64,000 nucleotides of DNA from an uncultured bacterium. Lineage in GTDB: Bacteria > B130-G9. Numbering within the stretch: the first letter of the stretch is position 1; each line of letters opens with the position of its first letter. A program made the position numbers and the translations under genes. The DNA lies in NCBI GenBank assembly GCA_964480475.1, contig CAYZPW010000001.1:16262-80261 (forward strand). Direction: 5' to 3'. Positions 11,664 through 37,202 of this stretch are shown here, piece after piece. The notes beneath the pieces are model-generated. The model saw only the letters and a list, made by a program, of their open reading frames with translations, had not been told where the DNA came from and did no database searches.

Positions 11664-13805
11664 TCAGCCCACTGACTTCGAACTTTGGGCTTTGGACTTG
11701 GACTTCGGACTTTTCTTGAACTTCAAGGAGACCCATGTCTTGAAAACGAGTGGCCAGGCCCTCAGATTGAAGACAAGATTGACCGGCAGGATGCACTCCC
11801 ACGTGCAATAGCAGTTGGAGGTCTTGATGAAGTCGAAGAGTTTTTCGGCCCGCTCCGACTTCAAAAGGGCTCGGACGTCATAGCCGTTCTGCCTTAGATT
11901 GCCGAAGCTCTTGTTGAGTATCTCACACGGATAAACGTCGCCCGTGTCCCCGATGACAATCACTTTCTTTCCTGCTACGCAAGGATACGTCATCTTACCG
12001 TTTCTGGCGGCCATGGCATTCTCTTCCGGGGCCAGACGCATTAGGACCTCCTTCATTCCGGCGAATGGGTGCTTGTCCCGGCTCTTGAATTGCTCATCGA
12101 GGCGCAGCTTCGTCATCGCCTCGTAATAGTCCTGCATAGTGACATTTATCGCTCGCTTGTCACGAGCGTCGCCTCTGACGATGTTGATCGAGTGCTTCAG
12201 GCCAAGGTCGCAGGCGATGAACTCATGCAGCGGGACCATTTGGTCCTTGTTGAAGTAGGTGTAAGTTGTGCCCACTCTCAGGCCAAGGTTGGGATATCTG
12301 TCAGCGAGTGGCATCAGATGTCTTAATGTCTTAACTGCCTTTTCAAAGCCGTCTTTGACACCCCTTATCATATTATGCGTCTCTGGGAGGCCATCGAGCG
12401 TCACCTGAACCATGAGAAATGAGTGGGGGCAGCGGTTAAGTATCTCCCTGGCAATGTCAACTGTCTTCTCAGGCAAATAACCGTTCGTGTGCATGCAGAT
12501 AATATGGGCGCCGTTGTGCCTGTAGAAAGTCTCGCAGATGTCCGGAATGTCGTCCCTGAGCGTTGGCTCGCCGCCGGTGATGGCGAGGTACTTGATATGA
12601 CCGAGGCTCTTAGCGATCCTCTGGACCTCATCGAGCGACAGCTCCTGCCGCTTGAGCGACTCGTCCTGCCTCCTCCAGTTGAAGCAGTAGTTGCATTTGT
12701 TGTTGCACCTTGCGGTGACGAAAAGGATAACGTAGGGCGGCATACGGCTGAGAAGAAAGCGCACGTTATCAATTGGAGACAACAACGCCATGAGCGTTCG
12801 GGAAGCAATATGCCGCACGAGTGCAAGCGACACGCCAACCCCGACCGTCAGGTAGTAAAGCGTGTTGCAGATAACGGAATAGAAGGCGAAGACTATGTGC
12901 TTCCGTTTGGCTACCCAGAAGTAGAAATGATAGTTCATTACTACGGTCAGCGTGAACAGGGCGAGCGATGCCCAGAGCAGCGCTGGGTATAACGGTGACA
13001 AGAGGAGCGCTGCAAGCATCAAAACGGCGAGCATGACAGATATCTGCTCTTGTGGTCCGTTGGGATTGTCTCTTCTGCCTCGCGCCCGCAGAAAAGACCC
13101 CAGGACCCTATTGCTGCGCTTGAACCACTGCTTGAGTTTGGGAAACAGTGGCAGGTAATGGTGCCGGAGCTTGATGTCCGTGAAAAAAACAACCTTATGA
13201 TGCTTGATTAGGCGCAACCCCAGATCATAATCCTCGCCACCGATCCCTCCCAGCGACGAATCAAAGCCCCCCACCTCCGCGAACACATCTCTTTGTACGG
13301 CGCCTCCATAAGAAGGGAAGCAACAACTGAGGTATCGCGTCCTTGCCCGGTGCCTGCCCTCGAAAAGATAGACGCATTTCAGACCAATGAACGTTACACC
13401 CCATCGCTTGTCGTCAAGAGCGCCGGACATAACGCCGCCAGCGACTCTGATCTTGGGGTCCGACTCGAACGCGGCCGCAAACCTCCTGAGCGTATCCGGG
13501 GCAGGGACGATGTCCGAATCCATGAACACCAATATCTCGCCCTTCGCCTCTTCCGCCGCTCGGTTTCTCGCCTTCGCCACGCCCAAGTTGCGAGGCTGTT
13601 TTATGAGCCTCACGGGATACTGCTCGGCAATGTCTCTCGAAGCGTCCGTGCTACAATCGTCAACGACGATCACCTCGAAATCGGGATAGTCCGACGCGCA
13701 CGCGGCCTGGAGCGTCTCGCCCAGGGTCCTCTGGGCGTTGTAAACCGGAATAATCACCGATACTGACGGGTGCCTTCTCTCCGCCCGAGAATAATCCTCA
13801 CTCAT
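11664..13805 (-). CDS. fusion protein: GT2 glycosyltransferase (GtrB/DPM1-like) + transmembrane segments + radical SAM/SPASM domain
   Basis: N-terminal VSVIIPVYN...VVDDCSTD...DSD (GT2 DxD motifs). Two to three transmembrane helices. Then CNNKCNYC (CxxxCxxC) and a C-terminal Cys cluster CVAGKKV...YPCE...CYCTWEC (SPASM-like). AAAGGAA RBS before ATG 13805. Confidence 0.75.
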   Translation of the reverse strand: MSEDYSRAERRHPSVSVIIPVYNAQRTLGETLQAACASDYPDFEVIVVDDCSTDASRDIAEQYPVRLIKQPRNLGVAKARNRAAEEAKGEILVFMDSDIVPAPDTLRRFAAAFESDPKIRVAGGVMSGALDDKRWGVTFIGLKCVYLFEGRHRARTRYLSCCFPSYGGAVQRDVFAEVGGFDSSLGGIGGEDYDLGLRLIKHHKVVFFTDIKLRHHYLPLFPKLKQWFKRSNRVLGSFLRARGRRDNPNGPQEQISVMLAVLMLAALLLSPLYPALLWASLALFTLTVVMNYHFYFWVAKRKHIVFAFYSVICNTLYYLTVGVGVSLALVRHIASRTLMALLSPIDNVRFLLSRMPPYVILFVTARCNNKCNYCFNWRRQDESLKRQELSLDEVQRIAKSLGHIKYLAITGGEPTLRDDIPDICETFYRHNGAHIICMHTNGYLPEKTVDIAREILNRCPHSFLMVQVTLDGLPETHNMIRGVKDGFEKAVKTLRHLMPLADRYPNLGLRVGTTYTYFNKDQMVPLHEFIACDLGLKHSINIVRGDARDKRAINVTMQDYYEAMTKLRLDEQFKSRDKHPFAGMKEVLMRLAPEENAMAARNGKMTYPCVAGKKVIVIGDTGDVYPCEILNKSFGNLRQNGYDVRALLKSERAEKLFDFIKTSNCYCTWECILPVNLVFNLRAWPLVFKTWVSLKFKKSPKSKSKAQSSKSVG

Positions 13806-14117
13806 TTCCTTTTGAGGCCGTCCGGCAAGATTCTTGTGCTTAAGTGTCCAATTGATCCGAAACGCGGGTAGGCTACCACGTGGGTGAGGTGCTTGCAAGG
13901 TGGCAGGCCGGGCTTGCGTCTAGGTCGAGGGTGAACCCTATTGGTCGTGGCTTCAGCCGGGCGATTGAACGAGGCGTTTCCCCACCATTAGATCGCCCTG
14001 CTAAAACAGGAAGCTAATACAACTGGCCGTGACAATTGCCGCGTTCAAACGCTGCAATAATCACAAACATGTCCTTACCTACGATTGAGGATCACCCCCT
14101 GCCGCCTGGCCTCGGGG

Positions 14118-14478: not shown

Positions 14479-16380
14479 CTACAGGTAGTTTAGAAGCGTA
14501 ACTTGATTCAGTATCCTGGCCCCGATCGAAAGTGACGTTTGGTAAGCCAGCTCCTCCTGCTCGAGGCGCGCGATGGCCTCGGGTAGGTTCACGCCTTGCT
14601 GCACCTCAAGCTGCTCCTTCATCAGGGCCTGATAGTCGAGCAGATTCTTCTGAACCATCATCATGTATTGCAGCGTTGAGCCGGCCAGCGCCTCGGTCTT
14701 GATGAGATGATTTATGTTGCCGTCGAGCGCTACATGCTCGCTTCTGTCGTGCCTCAAATCAAGTGTGAACGAATCGCCCGCCTGAAACTCACCCGGGACA
14801 CCGGAGAATGAGACAGAGACGCCGTCTGCGATGAGGATGCTCTCGCCCGAGGAGTAGGCTTCGCCGACGTCGATCGTCTTGATGACCTCCCCGGTCGCCT
14901 GGTCCGTCACCGTGATCGTTACGCCCTCGGTCTCGCCCAAAAGGCCGCCTGTGCTGCCCACCGTGAAGACCCAGGTCGCGTCAATGTCCCCGGTGTAGTA
15001 GCCATCTCTGCTAACCGAAACGCTGCTCTCTCCATTCCAGTCGGATGGATCGAATATCTTGGACTGGACCACGCCCGCGTCTATGTTGCGCGCCAGGCGA
15101 TTGAGCGTGTCCAAAACGGCGACGCCATCCGTCTCTCCGCTTGATACACCGAAGAAGCTCTGAAGCGTGTTTGCGCCGGAGCTCAAGTCGTTCAGGACGA
15201 TCTTGGCATGGAGGCCCTCCGAAAGCGGGCGAAGCCGCAGGCGCCCCTGCGAATCAAAGCTCGCCTGTATGAAGACCTCGTCGTCGTATTGATCGCTTTG
15301 GCCGATGAACAGGCCGGCCTGATCGAGCAGATTGAGAACGTCGGACTGCGTGTATGACGTCCCCTCTGTAAGTGTGATTGTCTTTGTCGTCGCTCCGTCC
15401 GAGATTAGAAACTCTATGTCCCCGCCGCCGGCGCTGACGGGCGTCCCACGAACCGCATCAATGATCGCTGTCCCGATGACTGTGTCGGCCTGCAAGAACG
15501 TGTGGCCCGCCACGTTGATATCGACTATCAGGTCATCTCCGATCTTCGACTTGATGGCGCCGTTGTTGCCGACGTAGGAAAAGCTGCCCTGCGGGGTGTA
15601 CATGACGCGGAAGCTCTGCGTGCCTGAGGCCATCGTTGCCGACGTCTCGATCCGAAGGCCGCGGCCGGTATTGACTGTCTCTCCCAGGGTAACCGTTATC
15701 GAGTTGGCCAGGTGGTTGTAGCTCGAGAAATAATGCGTGTCGTCCCTTGAGTTGTCGTCGATCTGGACCGACGAGCCGTCGGCCTCCTTCAGCGAGACTG
15801 TGGCGCCTATACCGTCGGACGTTATCTCAACAGTATAAACAGAGCGCTCCAGTTCCGGCAGGTCTGAGAACGGCGAGCCGATCGTAATCGCATCGATGCC
15901 ATCCGGCAGCGAGCCGACGAGTGTGATGTCCCGCTCTAACCTGACAAAGGGCTGAGTGGATGTCCGCGTGCCGGAGAACATGTATCGGTTGTTCTGCGAG
16001 CGGTTTGCCAGCGAGACGAGCTCGTCAATGTAGCCGCTTACGGCCTGCGAAAGGCCACTTCTGGCATCGTCGGACGTCGTGTCACTCAGGGCGAACATGG
16101 CCTTTTCGAGCGCCTGCTGCACCAGGCCCGACGCCTGGTTGATGCTGTCCTGGGTCGTCTGAGACCATGAATACGCCGTGTCGGCGTTCGCGGAGTACCT
16201 CTCAATTCTGCTGATCGCCGCCTCGTATCGGTGGATTCTTGCGAGCCCGCTTGGGTCGTCTGAAGGCTTGTTGACCCTCTTGCCAGACGCGATCTGAGCG
16301 GTCAGTTCGCTCAGACGTTCGTATTGCAGCTCCGCCCTCGTGAGGAAGTTCTTAACCATCATGTTGCGAGTAACCCGCAT
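14479..16380 (-). CDS. flgL: flagellar hook-associated protein 3 FlgL, long form
   Basis: Flagellin-like N-terminal helix (NFLTRAELQYERL). Conserved C-terminus (LSIGARILNQVTLLNYL). Immediately downstream of flgK. Confidence 0.75.
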   Translation of the reverse strand: MRVTRNMMVKNFLTRAELQYERLSELTAQIASGKRVNKPSDDPSGLARIHRYEAAISRIERYSANADTAYSWSQTTQDSINQASGLVQQALEKAMFALSDTTSDDARSGLSQAVSGYIDELVSLANRSQNNRYMFSGTRTSTQPFVRLERDITLVGSLPDGIDAITIGSPFSDLPELERSVYTVEITSDGIGATVSLKEADGSSVQIDDNSRDDTHYFSSYNHLANSITVTLGETVNTGRGLRIETSATMASGTQSFRVMYTPQGSFSYVGNNGAIKSKIGDDLIVDINVAGHTFLQADTVIGTAIIDAVRGTPVSAGGGDIEFLISDGATTKTITLTEGTSYTQSDVLNLLDQAGLFIGQSDQYDDEVFIQASFDSQGRLRLRPLSEGLHAKIVLNDLSSGANTLQSFFGVSSGETDGVAVLDTLNRLARNIDAGVVQSKIFDPSDWNGESSVSVSRDGYYTGDIDATWVFTVGSTGGLLGETEGVTITVTDQATGEVIKTIDVGEAYSSGESILIADGVSVSFSGVPGEFQAGDSFTLDLRHDRSEHVALDGNINHLIKTEALAGSTLQYMMMVQKNLLDYQALMKEQLEVQQGVNLPEAIARLEQEELAYQTSLSIGARILNQVTLLNYL

Positions 16381-23893: not shown

Positions 23894-23949
23894 CCCTGAA
23901 AAACGCTCCTTTCATCTGCGTTGCCTACATCCTGTCGCCGTGATCTCAA

Positions 23950-23964
23950 GCAGATCCCGTGCCA
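23950..23964 (-). promoter_or_regulatory. candidate sigma54 (-24/-12) promoter for the flgF operon
   Basis: Minus strand reads TGGCACgggatCTGCt, about 60 nt upstream of the flgF ATG. Rod and ring genes are sigma54-dependent in many lineages. Confidence 0.3.
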
Positions 23965-24288
23965 TTGCAATCAAAAACGTATCTCTGAAGGCCGCTCATC
24001 CACGTCCCAAACGCAATTGTCAGACGTTGAGCACGACGCCCAAGGCGCTTCGGCAGGCGAGGGGTCTTGGTCAAGCAGCTATCATTTCGGCAGGTTTTTC
24101 CCCCTTGACGGAGGCAAGAAAGCTCAAGAACTTCTGGTTGATAACGCCTTCAACGCTGGGATATAGTCATCCTTAGCCTTGTTTTTCTTGTGGGCCTTGC
24201 GATCGGAAATAATTTCCCCCAAAGGGCCGGGACCGCTTGCTGATACGTTGCATAGCCCGAATACGTTCGAGTCTGGTGGAGGGTCTGG

Positions 24289-25632
24289 ATGGCACAGATA
24301 TTCCCGTTTAGGGGCTATCGATACAACGTTGAAAGGGTGAAGAGCCTCGATAAGGTAATAAGCGACCCTTACGACAAGATTGGCGACGAGCTACAGGAGT
24401 TCTATTACGAGAGAAGCCCACACAACATCGTCAGGATCATCAAGGGCAAGACCTATCCGAACGACACGGAGGCCAACGACCAATACACGCGGGCGGCGGG
24501 TTTCCTCAATTCATGGATAAGCGAGGGGATACTCAACCGGGACCAGACGCCCTGCATATATGTCTGTGATCAGGAATACATTGTCCCGGGCGTAGGGGGC
24601 GCCAGAACAAGGAAGGGATTCATTGCGCTTCTGCGGTTGATGTCCTACGAGGAGGGAGGCGTCAAGCCCCACGAGCGGACGCTTGCAGGCCCCAAGGCCG
24701 ACAGATTGAACCTGATGCGGGCCACCCAGGCACAGTTCGGTCAGGTATTCATGCTCTACCCAGACCCCGAGAACCTGGTGAATAACCTCCTGGACGAGGC
24801 GCGCTCCTTGCGCCTGCCACTAGTGGGGAGGGACCGCTTTGGCGATCTACACAAAATGTGGCCTGTCAGCGAGCCCAGGATCATAGGCGACCTGCAAAAG
24901 CTGATGCTGGGAAAGCAGGTATTCATAGCCGACGGGCACCACCGTTACGAGACCGCGCTAGCCTTCCGGGACGAGATGCGCGGCAAGGTTCCGCCAACCG
25001 ACGAGCTCGAGACGATAGAAAACCGCATGATCACGTTTGTCAGTTTTGACGATCCGGGCCTTCTAGTTCTGCCGACCCACAGACTGATAAGGCACGTGAA
25101 GGATTTCGATCCCGAGGCTCTTGTTGGGAGGCTTGGGGAACTCTTCGAGTTGGAGATGCTGCCGTTCTCGGACGAGGGGTCCCGGGAGACCGCGCGGGGC
25201 AAGATGATGGCCCGCTTGGATTCCGCCTCGGAGAACGAATACGTATTCGGCATGGTGCTGGCCGGGCAGAGTCAGTTCATTCTGGCGAGGCTCAGGGACG
25301 AGGCGATTCTCGACACGATGATGACAGGCGTGGGATACGAGGACTTCAAGCGGCTCGACGTGGTGATTCTCCACGTGCTTATCCTTGAGAATATCCTTGG
25401 GATAACGAAGGAAGACCTGGCCCACGAACGTAACGTCGAATACTTGCGCGACGCGGGCCCCGGCATTGATTCTGTGCTCAAGGGCGACGCTCAGGCGCTT
25501 TTTGTCTTGAATCCTACGAAGACCTGGCAGGTTCGCAACGTGGCTTCTGCCGGGGTCCGGATGCCTCAGAAATCTACTGACTTTTATCCTAAGCTCGTTA
25601 CGGGCCTTGTGCTTAACAAGCTTGGACTATGA
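24289..25632 (+). CDS. DUF1015-family protein
   Basis: 447 aa. N-terminal MAQIFPFRGYRYN and overall layout resemble DUF1015. Divergent from flgF. Confidence 0.5.
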   Translation: MAQIFPFRGYRYNVERVKSLDKVISDPYDKIGDELQEFYYERSPHNIVRIIKGKTYPNDTEANDQYTRAAGFLNSWISEGILNRDQTPCIYVCDQEYIVPGVGGARTRKGFIALLRLMSYEEGGVKPHERTLAGPKADRLNLMRATQAQFGQVFMLYPDPENLVNNLLDEARSLRLPLVGRDRFGDLHKMWPVSEPRIIGDLQKLMLGKQVFIADGHHRYETALAFRDEMRGKVPPTDELETIENRMITFVSFDDPGLLVLPTHRLIRHVKDFDPEALVGRLGELFELEMLPFSDEGSRETARGKMMARLDSASENEYVFGMVLAGQSQFILARLRDEAILDTMMTGVGYEDFKRLDVVILHVLILENILGITKEDLAHERNVEYLRDAGPGIDSVLKGDAQALFVLNPTKTWQVRNVASAGVRMPQKSTDFYPKLVTGLVLNKLGL

Positions 25633-25672
25633 TCCTAAATGAAGTTGTGAAGGATTAACTCTGGGTGATGCC

Positions 25673-25915
25673 ATGATGACGTTTTTCAAGCTGCTCGGGA
25701 TTGTGGTAGCCGCGGTTCTGGGAGTTTTGGTCTTTTGGTTCGTGATCTTGCCGATTGTCGTGTTCTGTTTCGGTCTCTGTTTTTCAGTGCTTTGGGGGAT
25801 TGCCAGCGTTTTGGCGTTTCTGGCAAAGATAGCGATATTCGTGGGGCTTCTGGCGTTTATTTGCTTGCTTCTCTTGCGAGTAGCTGCCTGGGGGCTTGAG
25901 CTGATTCTTTATTGA
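25673..25915 (+). CDS. small hydrophobic membrane protein (three transmembrane segments)
   Basis: 80 aa, almost entirely hydrophobic. No RBS verified. Confidence 0.3.
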   Translation: MMTFFKLLGIVVAAVLGVLVFWFVILPIVVFCFGLCFSVLWGIASVLAFLAKIAIFVGLLAFICLLLLRVAAWGLELILY

Positions 25916-25928
25916 GGGCGCTTGCTTC

Positions 25929-26993
25929 ATGGAAGCTGCATTGGTTGTCGAAGGCGACGTTGACATAAGGACCGGCGACATCGATGGCGCAGGCGATGTC
26001 ATGGTCAAGGGCGACGTTCGGTCAGGCCAAGTCGTCACGGCAAAAGGCTCGGTCAGCGTCTCGGGAGTTGTTGAGGTCAGCACGATCAGCGCCGGGGGCG
26101 ACGTTTCTGTGCTGTGTGGAATAGCTGGCAGAGGCAAGGGCAGGATTTGCGCAAAGGGCAAGATAACCGTTGGCTATGCGAACCAGGCTACGCTTGAGGC
26201 CGCCGCTGGCCTGGTTATCGGCTCATCAGCTATGAATAGCACGTTATTGACCGATGGCGATGTTCTTATTGAAGGTGATGGCGTTCTTGTGGGAGGCGTC
26301 GTGATGGCGGGCGGCAACCTCACGGCGAGGCGCGTTGGCCATAAGGGCGCAGACCTTTTGGACAAGAGCAAGGGCATGGCCACGCACGTGATTGAGAAGA
26401 CGGTTATTATGCTCGGCCTTCCGCCGCCGGTCCGCAAGGACCATCTTGAGGCGCGGTCCCGGTTGCCGCTGGCCGAGAAGTTAGGACGCTCGTCCGCGAA
26501 GAATGTCCAATACCTCATCTCGCGCGGAGTGCCGGGAATGGACAATGCGATGGCCGAGCGAGCAGCGTTTCTGGCCAAGGCGCCCGTTTCCGAGGCTTTT
26601 CTCTTGGGCAAGGGCCCAGAAGCCGCGCTTGAGGCCAACCAAGAACTCCAAACCATCGTAGCCAGCATCGCGCTAGGGCTGCCGTCGCCGTCCAAACATT
26701 CCGAACCTCAGGACTCCGAAATCCAAAATCTCGCGCTCCACCTGTATCACTTATACGCTGCGAATAGGTTCGTGATCGAGCTTTGCCAGCAGGAGCAGGA
26801 CCGGTTGAGTTGCCCTGAGCTCAATTTGGGTGCTGCGTTCTGCGCTCAAGACACGGTTCACGAAGGCGTAGAGATAACGATAGGGTTTCAGGACTTCTTG
26901 GTCGAGGACGAGATGGCCGGGACGGTTTTCAGGCTCGCGGACGGCGAGATCGTGGCACAGCCATACAGCGCGGACACAGACGACGGGAGCTGA
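25929..26993 (+). CDS. beta-helical FapA/DUF342- or bactofilin-like protein
   Basis: N-terminal ~150 aa of G-x-V/I repeats (VEGDVDIRTGDIDGAGDVMVKGDVRSGQVV...). Helical C-terminal half. Confidence 0.4.
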   Translation: MEAALVVEGDVDIRTGDIDGAGDVMVKGDVRSGQVVTAKGSVSVSGVVEVSTISAGGDVSVLCGIAGRGKGRICAKGKITVGYANQATLEAAAGLVIGSSAMNSTLLTDGDVLIEGDGVLVGGVVMAGGNLTARRVGHKGADLLDKSKGMATHVIEKTVIMLGLPPPVRKDHLEARSRLPLAEKLGRSSAKNVQYLISRGVPGMDNAMAERAAFLAKAPVSEAFLLGKGPEAALEANQELQTIVASIALGLPSPSKHSEPQDSEIQNLALHLYHLYAANRFVIELCQQEQDRLSCPELNLGAAFCAQDTVHEGVEITIGFQDFLVEDEMAGTVFRLADGEIVAQPYSADTDDGS

Positions 26994-26995
26994 GA

Positions 26996-27391
26996 ATGAG
27001 CGAAGAGACCAAGAACGATTCGCCGCGCGGCGAACAGAAAAGGCACTTCTTTAGAGGGGAGGTGGCTCTGACTGTGCGAGCCGAGCTGTTCGCGCTTCCC
27101 GACGGCTCAGAACTCCCAACTGATAGGGAGATACCCATCGATATGATCAATGTAGGCGGCGGTGGAATGCTTCTTCTGGTGACGCGCCGGACCCCGACTA
27201 CTGAGCTCGTCTGCGACAGAGCACTGGTTGACCTGTCGATTCCGAGTTTTGGGTCGGTTCTCGTGATACGGCTGCTTTCCCGCGTCGTCAGGATAGAGAC
27301 GCCAACGCCGGACGAGCTCCGCCTTGCTCTTGAGTTTCTCCTCCTCTCTCCGAAAGAGGCCGACGCCATTGTGCGCATGGCCTCGCCCTGA
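26996..27391 (+). CDS. PilZ-domain protein (c-di-GMP receptor)
   Basis: RHFFR (RxxxR) followed by DMINVGGGGM (D/NxSxGG-type) motifs. The start ATGA overlaps the upstream stop. Confidence 0.6.
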   Translation: MSEETKNDSPRGEQKRHFFRGEVALTVRAELFALPDGSELPTDREIPIDMINVGGGGMLLLVTRRTPTTELVCDRALVDLSIPSFGSVLVIRLLSRVVRIETPTPDELRLALEFLLLSPKEADAIVRMASP

Positions 27392-27458: not shown

Positions 27459-29324
27459 ATGAGATTGCTAATTGTCGCCTTGATGCTTGCGCTTCTGGCG
27501 CTCGGCTGTGCCGGCATGTCCGACTCGGCCAGATACAAGGCTTACGAGGCCAGAGATAGGGGCGACTATGACGAGGCAATCGCTCTATTCTCGAAGGCGA
27601 TTCGCCTGAACCCCGAAAGTGCAAAGGCTTACCTGGGGCGTGGGCGGGTATATAGCAGGATGAAGAAGTATGACCTGGCCATCGCTGATTTCGACATCGC
27701 CATACAACTGGACCCCGAGCACTCTTCAGCATACGACAGCCGCGGGACCGCATACGAGAACGAGGGTCAACGTGACAAGGCGCTGGCCGATTACGCCAAG
27801 GCGATTGAGCTTGACCCGGAGAACTACGTCGCACACAACAATCGCGGACTACTCTTTGCGCGCGAGGATGACTATGGGAAGGCAATTGAGGAGTTCAGCA
27901 AAGCAATTGAGATAAACGCCAGATACGTCAAGGTCCGGTGCAACCGAGGCAATGCCTATGCCGACATAGGCAAGTTGGATGAGGCGATTGCCGACTACTC
28001 CGAGGCAATCAAGATCGATCCCAGAAGCTACAAAGCCTACGGTTCCCGGGGGGATGTGTATGCTAAGATGGACCTGCTTGATGAGGCGATCGCGGACTAT
28101 TCAGCCGCAATCAAGATGGAGGCTGGTCGTGCCAGCTTCTACTGCGATCGCGGGGACGCCTACGGCGACAGGGAAGACTATGACAAGGCGATCGCCGATT
28201 ACGCGAAGGCCATAGAACTCAGGCCCCAATACTGGAGGGCCTACTGCAATCGCGCGGGAACCTACGGCGATATGGGGGAGCTCGACAAGGCTCTAGCGGA
28301 TTACGATAAGGCGCTGGAGCTCAAGCCCGACTCATCAGAGACCTTCAACAGCCGTGCCTGGATGTTCGCGGAGATGGGCCAGTTCGAGAAGGCCATGCCC
28401 GACGCCAACAAGGCGATTGAGTTGGTCCCAGAAAGCGCCTCGGCTTACGACACGAGGGGCTACGCCTACGCCGGGATGGGCAAATATGACCTGGCGCTGG
28501 CGGACTACGAAAAGGCGCTGGAGCTCGTGCCCATCTATCCAGAGGCCCTGTATCATCGGGGTCGGCTCTTCTATGCCCACGGCGAGACCGAAAGGGCCCT
28601 GGCGGACTACGGTGAGGCGTTGGAGTTGAGGCCCAACTACGCTGAGGTCTATCTCAACCGGGCGCGAATCCACGAGGACTGGGAGCGCTGGAAGAGCGCA
28701 ATCACTGACTACACCCGCGTGATTGAGGTCCGTCCCTGGTCGTCAGAAGGCTACGTCAGGAGGGCCTACGTCTATTCCACGCAGGGCCGGTTCAAGCTTT
28801 CGGTCGCGGACTACGACAAGGCGGTTGAGGTCGATCCCACATGTGACCAGTGTTATTTGGGCCGCGCACGAGCGTGCCTCTCCATGCGCCTCTTGGACGG
28901 CGCGATCGCAAGCTGTTGCAAGGCGATTGAGGTGAACCCGGAGTGCTGGGACGCGTATCAGCTGCGGGGAAGCTGCCACCTTGACAGGGGCGAGTTCGAG
29001 GCGGCGATTTCGGATTGCAGCAAGGCCGTTGAGATCAACCCGCTGTGCAGCGAGGCGTTCAACAGCCGGGGCTATGCACGCGCTGCCCTGGGCTACGTAG
29101 AGAAGGCGCTTGAGGATTACACCAGAGCCGTCGAGCTAAACCCGAGCTTTGCCGACGCCTACTTCAACATGGCCACGGTCCTGGAGGCGACGGACCGAAT
29201 CGACGAGGCGATACGAGCCTATCGGCTCTTCGTGCAGTATGCGCCTCTTGAGCGCGGCAAAGCCGTCCAGCACGTCAAGAAAAAGATCGTGCGCCTCTCC
29301 CGCACGCTCGAAGGCCGCCGCTGA
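27459..29324 (+). CDS. TPR-repeat lipoprotein (about 17 TPR units)
   Basis: AAAGGAGG RBS. Signal peptide with lipobox (LALGCAG). Repeated A..Y..A..LDP TPR pattern throughout. Confidence 0.8.
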   Translation: MRLLIVALMLALLALGCAGMSDSARYKAYEARDRGDYDEAIALFSKAIRLNPESAKAYLGRGRVYSRMKKYDLAIADFDIAIQLDPEHSSAYDSRGTAYENEGQRDKALADYAKAIELDPENYVAHNNRGLLFAREDDYGKAIEEFSKAIEINARYVKVRCNRGNAYADIGKLDEAIADYSEAIKIDPRSYKAYGSRGDVYAKMDLLDEAIADYSAAIKMEAGRASFYCDRGDAYGDREDYDKAIADYAKAIELRPQYWRAYCNRAGTYGDMGELDKALADYDKALELKPDSSETFNSRAWMFAEMGQFEKAMPDANKAIELVPESASAYDTRGYAYAGMGKYDLALADYEKALELVPIYPEALYHRGRLFYAHGETERALADYGEALELRPNYAEVYLNRARIHEDWERWKSAITDYTRVIEVRPWSSEGYVRRAYVYSTQGRFKLSVADYDKAVEVDPTCDQCYLGRARACLSMRLLDGAIASCCKAIEVNPECWDAYQLRGSCHLDRGEFEAAISDCSKAVEINPLCSEAFNSRGYARAALGYVEKALEDYTRAVELNPSFADAYFNMATVLEATDRIDEAIRAYRLFVQYAPLERGKAVQHVKKKIVRLSRTLEGRR

Positions 29325-31865: not shown

Positions 31866-34800
31866 CTAGTGGAACTCAAATGGGGTTACCCAGATGTCGG
31901 TGACGGGCGAGAGGGTGCCTGGCCAGCAAAAGGCGGTGTAGAACGTGTATGTCCCGGGCGCGAGCGAGCCGTCCAGAACGACGTCGATGAACGTGAGTCC
32001 TTCTGGACAGTAGTATCCGGGCAGCGGGCGCCACTCTATCGGCGTCAGATCAACGCTAAACCCCGGCAGGCACAGCATCTGGCTGTCCGGCAAGACGACC
32101 ACCGCGTAAAGGTCAACGTCAACCGGCTCTCCGGGGTTGTAGCAATAGAAATCGGCCGTGAGCCGGTCGCCAGCATGGAAATCATCTCCGTTCACGAGGA
32201 TGGCGGCCGTTGGGGCGCCGTCGCTTGGATAGCTCCCGACGCAGTTTGAGACCTGCGACCAATTGTTGGAATCGTCAACCGCCTTGATCGCGAAGTAATG
32301 ATACGTTCCGGGCACGAAGCCCGACACAACGAACTGCTCAGCCGAGCCGCTCGTCCGCGGCGTCCAGGAAGTCGAATCAGCATAGACCGTCGCGGCAGGC
32401 CAGCTTGTCTCATTAATAGGGGCGGCGCCGAACCTAAGCTCGTAGGCGCTTGCGGTTCCGAATCGACCGTTATCGCCGGTCGCGGTGAAGCTTAGGAGTA
32501 ACTCGCCCGCGTTGAGCCATTTTCTGGCCGCAAGGTCGCATATCGGCGACGGCGGCACGGTTTCGCCGGTCGGCGTCGCGGAGGCCACATTCGACATCCG
32601 CGAGCCGTTGCTCGCCTCGTCGTAGGCCTTAATTGCGAAGTAGTGGGTCACGTTCGCCGTGAGGCCAGAGACCGCGAACGTCTCTGCGCTTCCTGCCGGC
32701 TGCGGCATCCAGAATAGAGAAGGCTCGTACAATGTGGCGCTCGAGAAGGTGTCAGCCGTGATCATCGACAACGAGTAGCGCAGCTCGTAGGACGACGCTG
32801 TGCCCTCGATGCCGCTGTCGCCCGTGGCGGTGAATCTCAACACGACGGAGTTCTCGCCAGCGGTCGCGGAGAGATTCTGTATAGAGGACGGCGGAACCGT
32901 ATCGCGGCCCGCTGTAGCTGAGGCGCAGTTTGAGACCTCCGATTGGTTTGAACCGTCGTCAAACGCCTTGAGCGCGAAGTAGTATGTTCTGCCGGAGACA
33001 AGGCCTGAGATGGTCTTCAGCTCCTGCTCTCCCGCTTCAAGTGGGGTCCAAGCGAGCGAGGGTTGATAGGTCTCCACGAACGCCCAGTTGGTGGCGCCGA
33101 TCTCAAACTCAGCGTATTTGAGGATGTAGCGGGTCGCGGCGCCGACAGTTCCGTCGTCGCCCGTCGCCGTCCAAAATAGGATCAATTGACCTTCCACCTC
33201 GCCGTCCTGGCCAGCGAGGTCCTCAATTCGCGCCGGTGGCACTTGGTCCTGACCGCCACCGGCGGACGCGCAGTTGGACACGGCCGACCAGTTCTCGGCG
33301 TCATCGACGGAGATGATGGCGAAGTAACACGGTATGCTGGAATCGAACCCGGAGATGACGAACGATTCGCTCGTGCCGGCCGTCTGGGGGACCCATTCAA
33401 GGGAGGGCGCATAGACCTGGGCGGCGTCCCAGTTGCCCGCGTTGATGAATGATTCAGAGTATCTGAGCTCGTAGCCGACGACTGTGCCGACGGTTCCGTC
33501 GTCGCCCGGCGCCGTGAAACTCAGCGTTATTTGACCCTCGAATGGCCCGGAAACCGCAAGCAAGTCCTCGATTGCCGCCGGCGGCACATCATCTGACGGC
33601 GCCTCAGTTGAGGCGAGATTCGAGATTGCCGAGGCGTTGCCCGCGTCGTCGAACACCTTGAGCGCGAAGTAGTATGCGGCTTCTGCGCCCAAGCCCGTCA
33701 CCGTTCTCTGCTCCTTGACTCCGGCTTGGACGGGCGTCCACGAGGTTGATGGCTCATAGAGCGTCACGGTGGAGAAATCGGACGCATCAAACGGCTCGGT
33801 GTGGTATCGCAGCTCGTAGCGCGCCGCCGTGCCGGAGCTGCCGTCATCGCCCGAGGCCGTCCAGCTGAGGTCGCAGGTTGTGGGGGTGTCGGCGTCCCGT
33901 TGAGCCGAGAGGTCCTCGACCCTTGCTGGTGGGACATTATCGTGCCCCGAGCCAACGAACATCATCTCGATCGTTGCGTCCGCGAGGTTGCCCCCGCCGT
34001 CGCGAGCATAAACGCTGAGTTCAACTATGCCCTGGCCGCTGTATGACACAGGCAGGTCGTTTGAATAGACGAAATCGCCCGGCCGGAGGTCCCCGTGCGT
34101 GCCGTCGTCGTAGAGCTCGGTGTCCGTCTCGCCGCCAATCGGGAGCAGATTAGCAGTTACGGAGGTTATGTTGCCGCGGCCATCCTTGTGCACCGCACAG
34201 ACGCAGAACAGGACATCAACTTCGCCGTTCTTCCCAGGCGCCGAGTCAACCACAGCCGGATATGACAGCGCGTAGGCTATTTCAACGGTCGAGCTGCCGC
34301 CGCTCTCACGGACCGAGCGCTGGGTCGTGCCCACGTCAACGGTCGCCTGAACAAGTTCGCCCTGCGAGACGGTGAAATCGCCCGACTGGGGCACGAACAG
34401 AGTCTCGAGGTCTTCGTCGCCACCGGAGAAATCCTCTACCATGAGGTAGAACGTGCCCGGAGCAGGAAAGAAGCTCACTCTTCCCGACGCGGCGAGGCTA
34501 CCCTCGTTCTTTCGGCCCAAATAGAGGCCGTCGTCCGCGAAAAGATAGGCCCTTGCCGACTGGAACGCCGCTCCGTTCTTCTGAACGGTAACCTCCACCT
34601 CGTTCTCCACGAACGTCTTTGTGATGCTTATGGATTCGGCCGCCGAGAGCTTGACGAGGCGCTCGCATCTCGAATCCCTCACATCGGCGCCAGATGTGAA
34701 TTGGAGCCTGTATTGGCCCGGAGGCACGGTTAGCGTCCGCTGGCCGTCGTCGCCTACACCGTAGTCTGGGGTCGAGGCTACCCATTTGCCTGAGCTTTCG

Positions 34801-37202
34801 TCGAAGACCTCGACGTCGCCGTTGCACGGGCCGTTTGTGTTCTCGATTCTTGCGTGGATGTATGCCGTATCGACAACTACGTCCCGGTCGAGGCTCTGTC
34901 CGCTGGCGAGCGAGACAGGAGAATCGAGGCTCTGCACGTGCGTGGCGCCATCAAAGCCCTGATATGTCAGTTGGGCCTCGTATTGGCCGGTTAGGAGCAC
35001 ATAGGAGCGCTCGCCCAACGGCAGTGCGCCAACGTCGGGGGGCATGCGCCTCGTATCGTCTTTGTGGAGCAGGCTCGTAAAATCCTTGTAGCCGTCCGAT
35101 GCCGGAACGTAGATGTAGAGCGCAAGATTGCTCGTAACCGGCCCCGCCGAATCGAACGTCGAAATCGTCAGCTGCCCTTGCCCCACGGTCTTGGAATGCT
35201 GCTTACGCTGGCCCGCGGCGAGCTGTATCGGATAGTCGATGGGGTGCGCGGCGATGCTGTTGGGATCGACGTATTGGTATCGGAAGCTGAACGTTGACGG
35301 CATCAGGTTGAACGTGTGATCGCTGGCGGCAAGAAGTGGATAGCCGTCGGCCGCAGTCAGGAGCGTCCCCGCCGAGTTATATATCCAAATCCTGCCCTCA
35401 GCCGAGCCGTCCCGGTCGCGCAGGTCAACCCAGACCGTGCCGTTGCCAAACGTAACGGTATCCGCGTCGCTCGCGCCCTCGGCCAGTGTGAATCCCCTCG
35501 TGATAACGCAGGCGTTAGGCGAGGACTCGTCATAGGCATACTTGATGGTGTATGTGCCCGCCGGGACATCCCACTCCTGAAACCCGTCGTCGCCTACGCC
35601 ATAGCGCGTGGTCTCCTCGACGAGCGCCCCGGTCTCCTCGTCGTAGATCGATGCGCCGCCGTTGCACGACCCATTGGCGTCGCGGAGATAGATGCCCAGC
35701 GTGCACGAGTCCGTGCCGCGCTCAAAGTCCAAGAGGTCGAGCGTGTATGAGTTCGCCTCCAGGTCGTTTGCTTCGATGTCGAAAAAGAACCGCTCAATTG
35801 GATCGCCCTCTTGAGGCGCGAAATAGACCTGAACGATGTATGTGGCTGGGATGACGTTATCAAATGAGCAGAGCCCGCCTTCGTGGGCCAGCGCGCTCGC
35901 CACCGCGTCGCCTGTGTCCTGATTGAGAAGGAACGCCGTCGCGGAACTGGCGGGGACGTTCTCGCCATCGTAGCGGACCCTCAGCGAGAGATCGCTGCCC
36001 CGCTCGACGGCGATCTGTAGCGTTTCAGTTGCGCCAGCGGCAAGTTCCCGGCCGACGAGGAACCACGTCTTCGAGGGCTCAACGAGCGAGTTCTCGACCT
36101 TGACGCTCACGCTGCCGGCAGGGACGTATCCGAAATCGACGATACCTCCAGGCCCGGGGGATTTGCCCTCATCAATCACGTCGAAACTCGGGTCGTGTAT
36201 CAGCGAGAGCTTCACAGCGTCATCGACAATTGGCGTTCCCGCGGCGTCCTTCACCTCGCAGCGCAGCCTCGCGACCTCGTCAAGAAGGATCGGGAGATTC
36301 ACGCTAAGGTCCGCCGGCGCCTCAAGGTCAAAGAAATATCGCTCCAGGCTCACAAGGCCGCGGTTATAGACGACCTTGATTTTGTAGTAGCCTGCGACTA
36401 CTTCGCCAAAGTCGGCCCTGCCGGAGCCGTCGCACAACAGCGCGTCAACGACCTCCGAAAACGGCGCCGATTGGTGCGACAAGAAGACCGTCGCCGAACC
36501 GGTCAGCGCTCGACCGAATGAGTCGGAGACCGTGAACTTCAGGCCCGAACAGAGCGGTATCTCGACGCGCCTCGTCTGGTTCGAGTTCGGCTGAACCACG
36601 ACGTCGAACGTGTGAAATCCGCCTTCAGGCCGAATCGACCAATGCCGCACCTTCGCGGAGTATATCCCTGGAACCACGTCATCGAAGTGCGCCTCTCCCA
36701 GACCGTCGCAGCGAACGCTGTCAACGAGATTGCTGGTGATTTGATCGTATAGATAGACGTCAATGTCGCCGTCCGGAACGGAGCCCGCCTCAGACCGAAC
36801 CCGTATTCTGAGATCGCCGCTGGAGCGAAAATTGATGGAGTCCTGAACGTCCTGCCCCGGGCCGACGACGATGTGGTGCTTGAACTTGACCACGACCGGC
36901 TGCACGCGCACGTGCTTGACCCTGATGAAATAAGTGTTGGCGCCTAAGCCCGAGAAAGTCAGCTTGCCCTCGGCGTCCGTCATGATTTTGCCAGGCGGGT
37001 CCTGAAACGCCAGATTGCCCTCGACAAACAGCGCGCCCTCCGCGTCGCCCGCAGAGACAGAACCCAAATCGTCAAGAACTGTCAGCTCGATACTCGCCGC
37101 GGCCGCGTCCGAGGCGGACCCCAATGAGCTGCTGCAAACCAGAAGCGCAAGCACTAGAAACGCTTGCGGCCAATTTCGGGCCTCTGAATTCCTATTCATC
37201 AT
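31866..37202 (-). CDS. giant secreted protein: Ig/CarboxypepD_reg-like beta-sandwich repeats, five tandem FN3-like repeats and a distinct C-terminal domain
   Basis: 1778 aa. N-terminal signal peptide. Five ~108-aa repeats (PPA.IEDL...GDDG..G....YELRY...Y.FA.KA.D...N.S). C-terminal ~120 aa share motifs with the C-terminus of ORF 60047..61723. Confidence 0.75.
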   Translation of the reverse strand: MMNRNSEARNWPQAFLVLALLVCSSSLGSASDAAAASIELTVLDDLGSVSAGDAEGALFVEGNLAFQDPPGKIMTDAEGKLTFSGLGANTYFIRVKHVRVQPVVVKFKHHIVVGPGQDVQDSINFRSSGDLRIRVRSEAGSVPDGDIDVYLYDQITSNLVDSVRCDGLGEAHFDDVVPGIYSAKVRHWSIRPEGGFHTFDVVVQPNSNQTRRVEIPLCSGLKFTVSDSFGRALTGSATVFLSHQSAPFSEVVDALLCDGSGRADFGEVVAGYYKIKVVYNRGLVSLERYFFDLEAPADLSVNLPILLDEVARLRCEVKDAAGTPIVDDAVKLSLIHDPSFDVIDEGKSPGPGGIVDFGYVPAGSVSVKVENSLVEPSKTWFLVGRELAAGATETLQIAVERGSDLSLRVRYDGENVPASSATAFLLNQDTGDAVASALAHEGGLCSFDNVIPATYIVQVYFAPQEGDPIERFFFDIEANDLEANSYTLDLLDFERGTDSCTLGIYLRDANGSCNGGASIYDEETGALVEETTRYGVGDDGFQEWDVPAGTYTIKYAYDESSPNACVITRGFTLAEGASDADTVTFGNGTVWVDLRDRDGSAEGRIWIYNSAGTLLTAADGYPLLAASDHTFNLMPSTFSFRYQYVDPNSIAAHPIDYPIQLAAGQRKQHSKTVGQGQLTISTFDSAGPVTSNLALYIYVPASDGYKDFTSLLHKDDTRRMPPDVGALPLGERSYVLLTGQYEAQLTYQGFDGATHVQSLDSPVSLASGQSLDRDVVVDTAYIHARIENTNGPCNGDVEVFDESSGKWVASTPDYGVGDDGQRTLTVPPGQYRLQFTSGADVRDSRCERLVKLSAAESISITKTFVENEVEVTVQKNGAAFQSARAYLFADDGLYLGRKNEGSLAASGRVSFFPAPGTFYLMVEDFSGGDEDLETLFVPQSGDFTVSQGELVQATVDVGTTQRSVRESGGSSTVEIAYALSYPAVVDSAPGKNGEVDVLFCVCAVHKDGRGNITSVTANLLPIGGETDTELYDDGTHGDLRPGDFVYSNDLPVSYSGQGIVELSVYARDGGGNLADATIEMMFVGSGHDNVPPARVEDLSAQRDADTPTTCDLSWTASGDDGSSGTAARYELRYHTEPFDASDFSTVTLYEPSTSWTPVQAGVKEQRTVTGLGAEAAYYFALKVFDDAGNASAISNLASTEAPSDDVPPAAIEDLLAVSGPFEGQITLSFTAPGDDGTVGTVVGYELRYSESFINAGNWDAAQVYAPSLEWVPQTAGTSESFVISGFDSSIPCYFAIISVDDAENWSAVSNCASAGGGQDQVPPARIEDLAGQDGEVEGQLILFWTATGDDGTVGAATRYILKYAEFEIGATNWAFVETYQPSLAWTPLEAGEQELKTISGLVSGRTYYFALKAFDDGSNQSEVSNCASATAGRDTVPPSSIQNLSATAGENSVVLRFTATGDSGIEGTASSYELRYSLSMITADTFSSATLYEPSLFWMPQPAGSAETFAVSGLTANVTHYFAIKAYDEASNGSRMSNVASATPTGETVPPSPICDLAARKWLNAGELLLSFTATGDNGRFGTASAYELRFGAAPINETSWPAATVYADSTSWTPRTSGSAEQFVVSGFVPGTYHYFAIKAVDDSNNWSQVSNCVGSYPSDGAPTAAILVNGDDFHAGDRLTADFYCYNPGEPVDVDLYAVVVLPDSQMLCLPGFSVDLTPIEWRPLPGYYCPEGLTFIDVVLDGSLAPGTYTFYTAFCWPGTLSPVTDIWVTPFEFH
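32230..33860 (-). repeat. five tandem ~324-bp coding repeats (FN3-like units) inside the giant gene
   Basis: Five consecutive, alignable ~108-aa units in the translation. Coordinates are approximate. Confidence 0.45.

Follow-up and report, generated by a model that had tools for sequence, protein, structure and literature searches.

A four-gene cluster divergent from flgF in Coatesbacteria-like bacteria: a DUF1015 gene and a putative c-di-GMP motility module of a micro-protein, a truncated FapA and a PilZ protein

Organization and conservation of the locus

The DNA analyzed here (the window, 64,000 nucleotides in its full length) carries a cluster of four genes, which encode a DUF1015 protein, a small hydrophobic membrane protein (micro-protein), a truncated FapA (FapA-core protein) and a single-domain PilZ protein (Table 1). 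As described in the initial annotation, the four genes are co-directional, and the cluster is separated by 395 bp (23894-24288) from flgF, which starts at 23893 on the minus strand. Their boundaries had also been called overlapping or near-overlapping; the intergenic gaps are 40, 13, and 2 nt in gene order, and near-overlapping is correct for the last two junctions only, with no overlap at any junction. At the last of these, the PilZ start codon stands 2 nt past the FapA stop codon.

Table 1 Features of the four-gene cluster and its surroundings.
Feature	Position	Strand	Size or remark
Sigma54-like promoter TGGCAC-N5-CTGCT	23949-23964	-	~55 nt upstream of flgF start; 1-mismatch pattern match
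Sigma70-like promoter TTGATA-18 nt-TATAGT	24138-24167	+	~120 nt upstream of DUF1015 start codon; consensus 10/12
Palindrome GGAAATAATTTCC	24205-24217		5' untranslated region, read from sequence
DUF1015 gene	24289-25632	+	447 aa
Small hydrophobic membrane protein gene (gene 2)	25673-25915	+	80 aa
Truncated FapA gene	25929-26993	+	354 aa
Single-domain PilZ gene	26996-27391	+	131 aa
TPR lipoprotein gene	27459-29324	+	TPR families (Pfam), lipobox in translation; downstream neighbor

In the intergenic region, both hexamers of the sigma70-like promoter are invariant in four loci, while the rest of the intergenic sequence has diverged. The palindrome is kept in three of these four loci and partly in the fourth, and it may be an operator site. 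Using Rfam, no match was found in the whole window at the gathering threshold, and a search of the 5' region at E ≤ 1 gave a chance snoRNA match only and no riboswitch. A conserved ribosome-binding site (GGTGA) lies upstream of gene 2, the 40-nt gap before this gene contains no conserved promoter and no convincing terminator, and the terminator-like matches sit within coding sequence at chance frequency. The four genes thus appear to be co-transcribed from the sigma70-like, housekeeping-type promoter. The sigma54-like site before flgF does not vary among the four Coatesbacteria-like intergenic regions that were aligned; this site belongs to the context of the divergent flagellar operon and is outside the four-gene cluster. 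When the window was scanned for sigma28 and sigma54 patterns, the counts were at chance level, and only the conserved site before flgF was retained. Because the promoter of the four-gene operon is sigma70-like and that of flgF is sigma54-like, the operon is not visibly in the flagellar regulon, and the promoters give no sign of regulatory coupling to the flagellar hierarchy.

All related contigs with coverage keep the block of DUF1015, micro-protein, FapA and PilZ genes divergent from flgF, even where FapA identity has fallen to 46%, and all relatives carrying it are Coatesbacteria-like and uncultured. PilZ directly follows the short FapA in 12 of 12 loci with coverage, the micro-protein and DUF1015 genes are upstream of FapA in 8 of 8, and flgF is divergent in 7 of 7. 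In a further diverged member (L101), PilZ (MKTDSGEQRRAFFRR) also begins right after FapA. Among the four proteins, DUF1015 is the slowest-evolving (64-80% identity, compared with 45-76% for the other three). This conservation of gene order is more than chance. The initial annotation had made its proposal depend on linkage in related genomes, and it stands in this respect, since the cluster is conserved beside the flagellar rod/ring operon in all of them. The conserved block ends at PilZ, because three different genes come after PilZ. In the window, PilZ is followed by a TPR lipoprotein gene. A TTG open reading frame from 27324 overlaps the PilZ gene, and the true start of the lipoprotein is most likely the ATG at 27459 (MRLLIVALMLALLALGC...). 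This gene is 3' of PilZ only in closer relatives (L090, L001, L095, L097, and L099), and other genes stand in its place in the more distant relatives L003 and L005. We considered it as a fifth core member and dropped it for this reason; it is probably outside the conserved core.

The DUF1015 protein

The first gene encodes a full-length DUF1015 protein (Pfam PF06245, 279 bits, E 5e-83), which shares 43-51% identity along its entire length with homologues named Planctomycetota, Chlamydiota, Chloroflexota, Terriglobia, and Thermotogae. Together with 14 homologues from several phyla, it has 63 invariant columns, including the motifs PYDKI, HE.T...PK.DR, IADGHHRYET, PTHR, and QKSTDF.PK, and it carries the ParB/Srx-like DGHHR motif. 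DUF1015 had been annotated as having no assigned function, which is out of date: in a 2024-2026 preprint the family was proposed to be SerBK, a serine-kinase-like replacement for the phosphoserine phosphatase SerB, with complementation of E. coli serB, although its biochemical activity is not settled even in that preprint (10.1101/2024.10.14.618325). Like the SerBK proteins CDIF630erm_01132, CBO1128, and BT1151, the protein of the window matches PF06245 over its full length and has every motif that is invariant in the family, and it is a putative orthologue of these tested proteins. A Clostridial homologue (Solibaculum, L060), which is 39% identical, adjoins a serC-like aminotransferase gene. 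In contrast, the gene of the window is not beside serA or serC and heads an operon with motility-type genes: its immediate neighbors are flgF and the micro-protein gene, and of the window open reading frames scanned with Pfam, none is of the serA or serC type.

In other species, the neighborhood of DUF1015 is different. We examined 80 DUF1015 loci in other species: within 6 kb, none has a flagellar or PilZ gene, and a FapA gene occurs at just one. In this case (L031, Clostridial), DUF1015 and a canonical FapA are 3.3 kb apart, lie on different strands and are separated by several unrelated genes, and we did not count it as linkage. The linkage of DUF1015 to DUF342 and PilZ at flagellar loci, which the initial annotation had suggested for profiling, therefore does not hold at these loci outside the clade. 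An association with serA/serC-type genes is also only partial, with 6 Aminotran_5 and 3 2-Hacid_dh genes among 127 immediate neighbors examined with Pfam, which also include 6 HAD genes. The product of the DUF1015 gene is most likely a SerBK-type, serine-kinase-like metabolic enzyme that is separate from a motility module.

The micro-protein, the FapA core and the PilZ protein

The 80-aa product of gene 2 belongs to no Pfam or NCBIfam family. Its hydropathy is above 1.9 throughout, and it probably has three transmembrane segments. It is 49-76% identical to its counterparts in L002, L003, and L005, with a conserved C-terminal R-x4-GLExxLY motif, and on this sequence evidence gene 2 is a real gene.

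The third gene had been likened to FapA (DUF342) or bactofilins. The FapA part of this comparison is borne out by Pfam (PF03961, E 2.7e-43, 149 bits with a cut-off of 31) and by profile-profile alignment (hhalign) with ten canonical FapA proteins (probability 99.9%, E 6.7e-37, residues 3-351), and the bactofilin part is not, as there was no Pfam match to PF04519 in this protein. MinC_C (PF03775) scored 16.8 bits against a cut-off of 33.2, and we dropped membership of both MinC and bactofilin families on these profile scores. The Pfam match covers only profile positions 2-157, because two insertions sit in the helical region. The protein has a right-handed β-solenoid (residues 1-136), from which a disordered loop (139-152) leads to a helical hairpin region (166-293), and a β cap (303-345) is at the C-terminal end. 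It shares the PF03961 solenoid, the helical hairpin, and the C-terminal β cap with canonical FapA of V. vulnificus, Firmicutes, and Thermotogae, and in both cases the gene is beside flagellar or chemotaxis genes. However, the alignment starts at position 249 of the canonical profile; the N-terminal part of canonical FapA (~250 aa) is absent, with no Pfam match to FapA_N (PF20250) in the 354-aa protein, and the two helical-region insertions are also a difference from canonical FapA. An in-frame stop lies upstream, the open reading frame takes the first start codon that follows it, and all 14 close homologues are 348-359 aa in length. End-to-end matches to this protein are rare, with 4-5 cluster representatives among 1.84 billion. 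For the FapA/DUF342 family, ~9,000 cluster representatives were found. Particularly, the FapA of the window type is always paired with PilZ and the micro-protein, while no PilZ neighbor was found at three canonical FapA loci examined. Another locus (L100) carries a canonical long FapA of a high-GC organism and was set aside as irrelevant.

The solenoid has a MinC-like turn, R31-S32-G33-Q34 (nt 26019-26030), at the place where canonical FapA has a Q/E-x-G-F turn. HMMER aligns this V-R-S-G-Q of the window with the RSGQ motif by which T. maritima MinC binds MinD, and a PDB profile search with the FapA family gave 1hf2 at E 0.021. Apart from a structural similarity to MinC, only this RSGQ-like turn is shared, and it is a four-residue turn within a repetitive fold. 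Compared with MinC and bactofilins, the solenoid of the window is longer and is followed by the helical hairpin and cap typical of FapA, and the N-terminal domain of MinC is missing. No MinD/FlhG gene was found among the window open reading frames scanned with Pfam. The FapA of V. vulnificus acts as an effector of polar flagellar assembly (PMC12918733), and FapA is co-present with flagellar genes (preprint 10.64898/2026.06.11.731707). Canonical FapA genes were found within che/fla operons; that of Fervidobacterium is not near flagellar genes.

The fourth gene had been called a clear PilZ. The PilZ fold is well supported, but 'clear' is a little too strong for the sequence by itself, as the protein scores 20.0 bits with PF07238, below the cut-off of 22.5. 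We keep the assignment because its orthologues pass this cut-off (38.3 bits for L001 and 25.6 bits for L005), its model matches PilZ domains, and the RxxxR motif is invariant. Precomputed PF07238 matches exist for 16 of 19 PilZ family hits. In the AF2 model (pLDDT 77.8), a β-barrel is followed by a C-terminal helix, and residues 1-20, which include the RxxxR arm, are disordered. With Foldseek, the top 37 matches of this model were all PilZ domains (best YcgR, E 1.2e-5), and the top ones were the c-di-GMP-bound PilZ domains of YcgR, Alg44, BcsA, and MotI. No match to PDB sequences was obtained with the PilZ family profile even at E 10. The RxxxR motif is R16-H-F-F-R20 (nt 27041-27055), and R16, F19, R20, and G57 are invariant in all 18 PilZ sequences. 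The second motif of the window protein is N52-V-G-G-G-G57 (nt 27149-27166), in which Gly54 replaces Ser; in 14 of 18 relatives the motif reads N-x-S-x-x-G, with the canonical serine of D/NxSxxG. From its sequence and model, the protein has a PilZ fold with largely intact c-di-GMP motifs and is predicted to bind c-di-GMP; the affinity could be weaker in this genome because of the Gly in place of Ser and the score under the Pfam cut-off.

Compared with YcgR, MotI (DgrA), and MapZ-type PilZ effectors of flagellar function, the protein has the same PilZ β-barrel with an N-terminal RxxxR arm, and PilZ of the window type adjoins flagellar genes, including motA-motB in another lineage. In contrast to these effectors, it consists of one domain only (~130 aa), PilZN/YcgR_N is missing, and its sequence is too diverged for a profile match to PDB PilZ domains. 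The partner of MapZ is CheR1, whereas the gene order points to the FapA core as the partner of the window PilZ.

The pairing of short FapA with PilZ recurs beside motor genes, because an unrelated lineage has an operon of short FapA, motA, motB, and a 132-aa PilZ with the motifs RREFFR and NFSGAG. This second lineage is represented by one operon type on two near-identical contigs (L104/L105). Its FapA is truly N-less, with an in-frame stop upstream, and its FapA and PilZ each align end to end with the Coatesbacteria proteins; no DUF1015 gene is nearby. A 'short FapA'-HDOD-FliP arrangement (L102/L103) was rejected as an N-less FapA, as the contig ends before any stop codon is reached upstream of the gene, and another contig (L106) was too short to show neighbors. 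The motility-related c-di-GMP reading of FapA and PilZ is strengthened by this recurrence with motA-motB.

A candidate c-di-GMP module and competing explanations

In our preferred reading, to which we give a probability of about 0.5 as a whole, the four-gene operon is specific to the Coatesbacteria-like lineage and joins two functionally separate parts. Gene 1 would be a housekeeping DUF1015/SerBK-type enzyme with a ParB/Srx-like fold, which acts in place of phosphoserine phosphatase, and genes 2-4 would be a motility accessory module of the ~3-TM micro-protein, the FapA core without FapA_N, and the translationally coupled PilZ. These three proteins probably form a motility regulator. PilZ would take c-di-GMP via its flexible RxxxR arm and β-barrel, and the loaded PilZ would dock on the FapA-core scaffold or alter its activity. 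The micro-protein would keep this scaffold at the membrane, and the scaffold would then work on the flagellar machinery. The candidate target is the stator, as suggested by the FapA-motA-motB-PilZ operon of the second lineage, and a MinD/FlhG-type ATPase, contacted via the MinC-like RSGQ turn, is an alternative target. High c-di-GMP would then result in less flagellar assembly or rotation. The initial annotation had suggested such a c-di-GMP-responsive flagellar module for the whole cluster; this is plausible for the last three genes, from synteny, the PilZ motifs, and the motAB pair, and it is unsupported for DUF1015. A more specific form, which we consider doubtful, is that the FapA core and the single-domain PilZ are a split, two-protein counterpart of YcgR/MotI, in which the loaded PilZ sits on a membrane-tethered, MinC-like β-helix and MotA or a MinD/FlhG-type ATPase is engaged via RSGQ.

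Alternatively, all four proteins might be one dedicated flagellar-control unit, in which the kinase-like DUF1015 enzyme acts on the FapA/PilZ module, or on a flagellar component, by modifying or fueling it. One conserved promoter with short gaps between the four genes would fit this, a DUF1015 gene that is co-transcribed with the other three could have a role in common with them, and the unsettled activity of the SerBK family would fit as well. DUF1015 is at the head of the cluster in every locus with coverage (8 of 8) and apparently also in the more diverged P0169/P0324 clade. However, the protein has full-length homologues in the other phyla named above, and its enzyme motifs are all family-wide ones. 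To our knowledge, most of these lineages are not known for flagella. Furthermore, the 80 loci from other species have no PilZ or flagellar gene nearby and a single FapA gene on the other strand, serC-like and serA-like neighbors recur, and the short FapA and PilZ of the second lineage occur without DUF1015. We therefore consider a four-protein unit quite improbable.

The other two explanations concern the last three genes, and we regard both as unlikely. The trio might serve polarity or division in the manner of MinC, or be a different c-di-GMP output, and just happen to lie beside flgF. Its promoter type is unlike that of the flagellar operon, the RSGQ turn is at the MinD-binding position of a β-helix for which no solved structure is a closer match than MinC and bactofilin, and some FapA genes, such as that of Fervidobacterium, are away from flagellar genes. 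This is opposed by the divergent flgF, which is kept in all seven loci with coverage despite rearrangement on the downstream side, by the pair that brackets motA-motB in L104/L105, by other FapA genes within che/fla operons, and by the low MinC_C score and the missing MinC N-terminal domain. Alternatively, PilZ might be a degenerate adaptor without c-di-GMP binding, as is PA2960, the type IV pilus PilZ, and the module would then be an accessory to structure or assembly that receives no second-messenger signal. The serine-free N-V-G-G-G-G motif, the score under the Pfam cut-off, and the failure of the family profile to find a PDB sequence are consistent with this. However, RxxxR is present in all 18 sequences and the canonical N/D-x-S-x-x-G in 14 of them, while the non-binding PilZ proteins known to us are without RxxxR. 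In addition, the modeled fold is best matched by c-di-GMP-bound PilZ domains, and the predicted disorder of the RxxxR arm is what one would expect of a binding arm in the apo state.

In conclusion, the reading of the DUF1015 position as a lineage quirk guards against the spread of a 'flagellar DUF1015' annotation from gene context. FapA/DUF342 is a very large, flagella-tied family in which the Vibrio protein is the only one studied. The N-less FapA strictly paired with a coupled PilZ, together with the pair that brackets motAB, leads to a testable model in which the FapA solenoid serves as the output scaffold of a c-di-GMP switch on the flagellar motor. If true, the split counterpart of YcgR/MotI would be a previously undescribed class of c-di-GMP effectors that control how flagella rotate or where they are placed, and would offer a first mechanistic view of what the widespread FapA solenoid does.

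Layout and predicted transcription of the cluster

Plus-strand open reading frames were found exactly where the initial annotation had placed the four genes of the cluster (DUF1015, micro-protein, FapA-like protein and PilZ), with intergenic gaps of 40, 13 and 2 nt. At 395 bp from the cluster, Pfam searches identified flgF-flgG-flgA-flgH-flgI on the minus strand, then genes for a rod-binding (FlgJ-like) protein, flgM, flgN, flgK and, closing the flagellar operon, a flagellin-N (FlgL-like) gene. Next to this last gene lies a fusion of family-2 glycosyltransferase and radical SAM, possibly a glycosylation or modification enzyme of the flagellum. An NCBIfam scan of the cluster proteins gave nothing beyond the Pfam result. 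Judged by the names of close homologues, the window belongs to Candidatus Coatesbacteria, an uncultured candidate phylum. Elsewhere in the window, a 1778-aa protein with weak fn3 and CarboxypepD_reg matches only is probably a large surface protein.

When the 395-bp intergenic region was aligned across four loci, three conserved islands were detected in otherwise diverged sequence. A sigma54-like promoter, TGGCAC-N5-CTGCT (TGGCACGGGATCTGCT), lies ~55 nt upstream of flgF; its sequence is unchanged across the four loci despite their divergence, a sign that the rod/ring operon may depend on RpoN for its expression in this phylum. Before DUF1015, a sigma70-like promoter (TTGATA-18-TATAGT) forms a conserved island, and between it and the DUF1015 start, in the 5' UTR, the perfect palindrome GGAAATAATTTCC is conserved in three of the four loci, had no match among Rfam families and may be an operator for some regulator. 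Since the GGTGA ribosome-binding site alone is conserved in the 40-nt gap upstream of the micro-protein gene, the four genes are probably a single transcript, read from a housekeeping-type promoter.

Coordinates of the features discussed (window positions unless a locus or residues are named)
Feature	Position	Strand	Size
DUF1015 ORF	24289-25632	+	447 aa
Micro-protein ORF	25673-25915	+	80 aa
FapA-like ORF	25929-26993	+	354 aa
PilZ ORF	26996-27391	+	131 aa
TPR lipoprotein	27459-29324	+	621 aa
Sigma54-like promoter	23949-23964	-	
Palindrome	24205-24217		
Flagellin-N (FlgL-like) gene	14479-16380	-	633 aa
Glycosyltransferase/radical SAM fusion	11664-13898	-	744 aa
Probable large surface protein	31866-37202	-	1778 aa
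Second PilZ protein	50641-51342	-	233 aa
Family-2 glycosyltransferase gene	51370-52059	-	
Right-handed beta-solenoid, AF2 model	FapA core residues 1-136		
Disordered loop, AF2 model	FapA core residues 139-152		
Helical region, AF2 model	FapA core residues 166-293		
C-terminal beta cap, AF2 model	FapA core residues 303-345		
PilZ orthologue, related locus L005	L005 9062-9499		145 aa
Public gene call, same orthologue	L005 9224-9499		91 aa
FapA-motA-motB-132-aa protein operon, second lineage	L104 4170-6973; L105 5001-7804		
FapA-core genes	L102 12-2527; L103 19-1265		

A FapA core coupled to a PilZ protein

In the 354-aa protein, Pfam matched FapA (PF03961, E 2.7e-43) over profile positions 2-157 only, and FapA_N (PF20250), the N-terminal domain of canonical FapA, was absent; bactofilin gave zero Pfam match. 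When its profile was compared with that of ten canonical FapA proteins, the whole protein aligned to positions 249-529 of 549 (probability 99.9%), and it is therefore the PF03961 core minus the ~250-residue N-terminal part. Its AF2 model (pLDDT 87.8) has four regions, starting with a beta-solenoid. A profile search run exhaustively over 1.84 billion representatives recovered about 9,000 proteins of the FapA superfamily, and end-to-end matches to the core were limited to 4-5 representatives. The search also returned giant proteins in which the FapA-type beta-solenoid is repeated many times in tandem (P0170, 3620 aa with 13 matched stretches; P0172, P0173 and others, 1000-1900 aa), whose architecture is very unlike that of the flagellar FapA.

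The short FapA forms a tight clade of 14 homologues (348-359 aa, 46-96% identity), beyond which the next matches are full-length FapA_N+FapA proteins (E about 1e-14). From gene tables for three clade members and from metagenome contigs surveyed by tblastn, we found PilZ directly after the short FapA in 12/12 loci with coverage, with micro-protein and DUF1015 genes upstream in 8/8 and divergent flgF in 7/7. Even in P0169, a still more diverged member (locus L101), the PilZ start (MKTDSGEQRRAFFRR) lies 1 base 3' of the FapA stop. The genes after PilZ vary: close relatives have a TPR lipoprotein there, and the related loci L003 and L005 have different genes, so the conserved block ends at PilZ. 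The TPR lipoprotein, kept only in closer relatives, consists almost wholly of TPR repeats and starts 67 nt past PilZ, a gap in which no terminator-like site was found; a TTG-started ORF at 27324 overlaps PilZ, and the ATG at 27459 is the probable true start. The micro-protein is hydrophobic along nearly its whole length, matched no Pfam family, and shows 49-76% identity to its counterparts at three further loci, the C-terminal GLExxLY being invariant.

The window PilZ scored 20.0 bits, slightly under the 22.5-bit Pfam cut-off, and had only 19 relatives by sequence, all from the one clade that bears the cluster. Residues R16, F19, R20 and G57 are invariant in 18 sequences. In the AF2 model (pLDDT 77.8), the RxxxR arm is disordered and is followed by a beta-barrel and a C-terminal helix; the model's best PDB matches are the c-di-GMP-bound PilZ domains of YcgR, Alg44, BcsA, MotI, MrkH and PlzA. 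On the basis of motif conservation, model and PDB matches, the protein is assigned to the PilZ fold; the family probably binds c-di-GMP, which for the window copy is a prediction only. The orthologue in L005, the most diverged locus, starts 8 nt past FapA and scores above the Pfam cut-off; the public gene call is shortened and has lost the RxxxR arm. A second PilZ protein in the window, in which an unassigned 120-aa N-terminal part precedes the domain (PF07238, E 1.2e-10, residues 122-221), is encoded just downstream of a gene for a family-2 glycosyltransferase and could be a YcgR-like or exopolysaccharide-associated c-di-GMP receptor.

Beyond this clade, PilZ neighbours were absent from three canonical FapA loci; one canonical FapA ends a cheB-cheA-cheW-cheC-cheD-sigma factor operon and another precedes cheW-MCP genes. 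In an unrelated lineage (bacterium GCA_035288405.1), P0182 is a genuine FapA lacking FapA_N (295 aa, PF03961 profile positions 3-272, in-frame stop upstream) at the head of an operon with motA, motB and a 132-aa protein, which contains canonical RxxxR and NxSxxG motifs (RREFFR and NFSGAG) and is named PilZ by NCBI. Both proteins align end-to-end with their Coatesbacteria counterparts (FapA, probability 99.8%, 32% identity; PilZ profile, probability 87%, E 3.9e-6), so a FapA core paired with a ~130-aa PilZ occurs in more than one clade. L102 and L103 each have an HDOD-domain gene after the FapA-core gene, with fliP next in L102; these FapA-core genes are possibly cut by the contig end, and whether they lack FapA_N is uncertain.

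The DUF1015 gene

The 447-aa protein matches DUF1015 (E 5e-83) and is the most conserved of the four within the clade. Its full-length identity is 43-51% to homologues that carry the names Planctomycetota, Chlamydiota, Chloroflexota, Terriglobia and Thermotogae, with which it has 63 invariant columns in common, including IADGHHRYET. A recent preprint reported that genes for DUF1015 lie in clusters with serA and serC and occur in serB-lacking genomes, that CBO1128 complements an E. coli serB mutant, that BT1151 is required for growth with serine as nitrogen source, and that the family is predicted to have a fold similar to that of the serine kinase SbnI; its authors named the family SerBK and regard the biochemistry as still open (10.1101/2024.10.14.618325). 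Using phmmer and profile HMMs, neither PilZ nor flagellar rod or ring genes were found within 6 kb of DUF1015 in 80 other-species loci. One canonical FapA gene was found within that distance, at the Clostridial locus L031, on the opposite strand with unrelated genes between. Immediate neighbours by Pfam were lineage-specific Amidase_3 and VWA in Acidobacteria, and Aminotran_5 (6), HAD (6) and 2-Hacid_dh (3) outside Acidobacteria; the Solibaculum gene adjoins a serC-like gene.

A proposed composite operon and its alternatives

The cluster is best read as a composite operon: first a metabolic gene of SerBK type, then three genes that together make up a motility module. Within the module, the single-domain PilZ would signal the c-di-GMP state to a FapA-core scaffold associated with the membrane, and the scaffold would act upon the flagellar motor or flagellar assembly. 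A rival reading, close to the four-gene c-di-GMP-responsive flagellar module suggested initially with DUF1015 as a member without assigned function, is that all four genes on their probable common transcript work jointly, but the SerBK preprint and the 80 other-species loci speak against the DUF1015 part, which we have dropped.

The other three genes could also, less probably, be a Min-like, non-flagellar device. HMMER aligned RSGQ of T. maritima MinC, a motif in contact with helix 7 of MinD (PMC6803595, PMC5548801), to V-R-S-G-Q at residues 30-34 of the FapA core, whereas the turn of canonical FapA differs at this position; this likeness points towards a MinD/FlhG-type partner as a lead, not as evidence. 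MinC_C reached 16.8 bits, below the Pfam threshold, and in the second lineage the FapA core and PilZ flank the stator genes motA-motB. Alternatively, and likewise less probably, PilZ may be an adaptor without c-di-GMP binding: the second motif, N/D-x-S-x-x-G in 14 of 18 sequences, reads N-V-G-G-G-G in the window copy, and the binding predicted for the family is to be set against this reading.

The evidence for the cluster is identity, fold, motifs and synteny, beyond which we infer from gene context in uncultured organisms. DUF1015, its most mysterious-looking part, is largely explained away. Each protein family is known, and we found no description, in the literature searched, of a FapA without FapA_N strictly coupled to PilZ and a micro membrane protein. 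The FapA core and PilZ may be a split analogue of YcgR, and their pairing offers a testable handle on FapA function.
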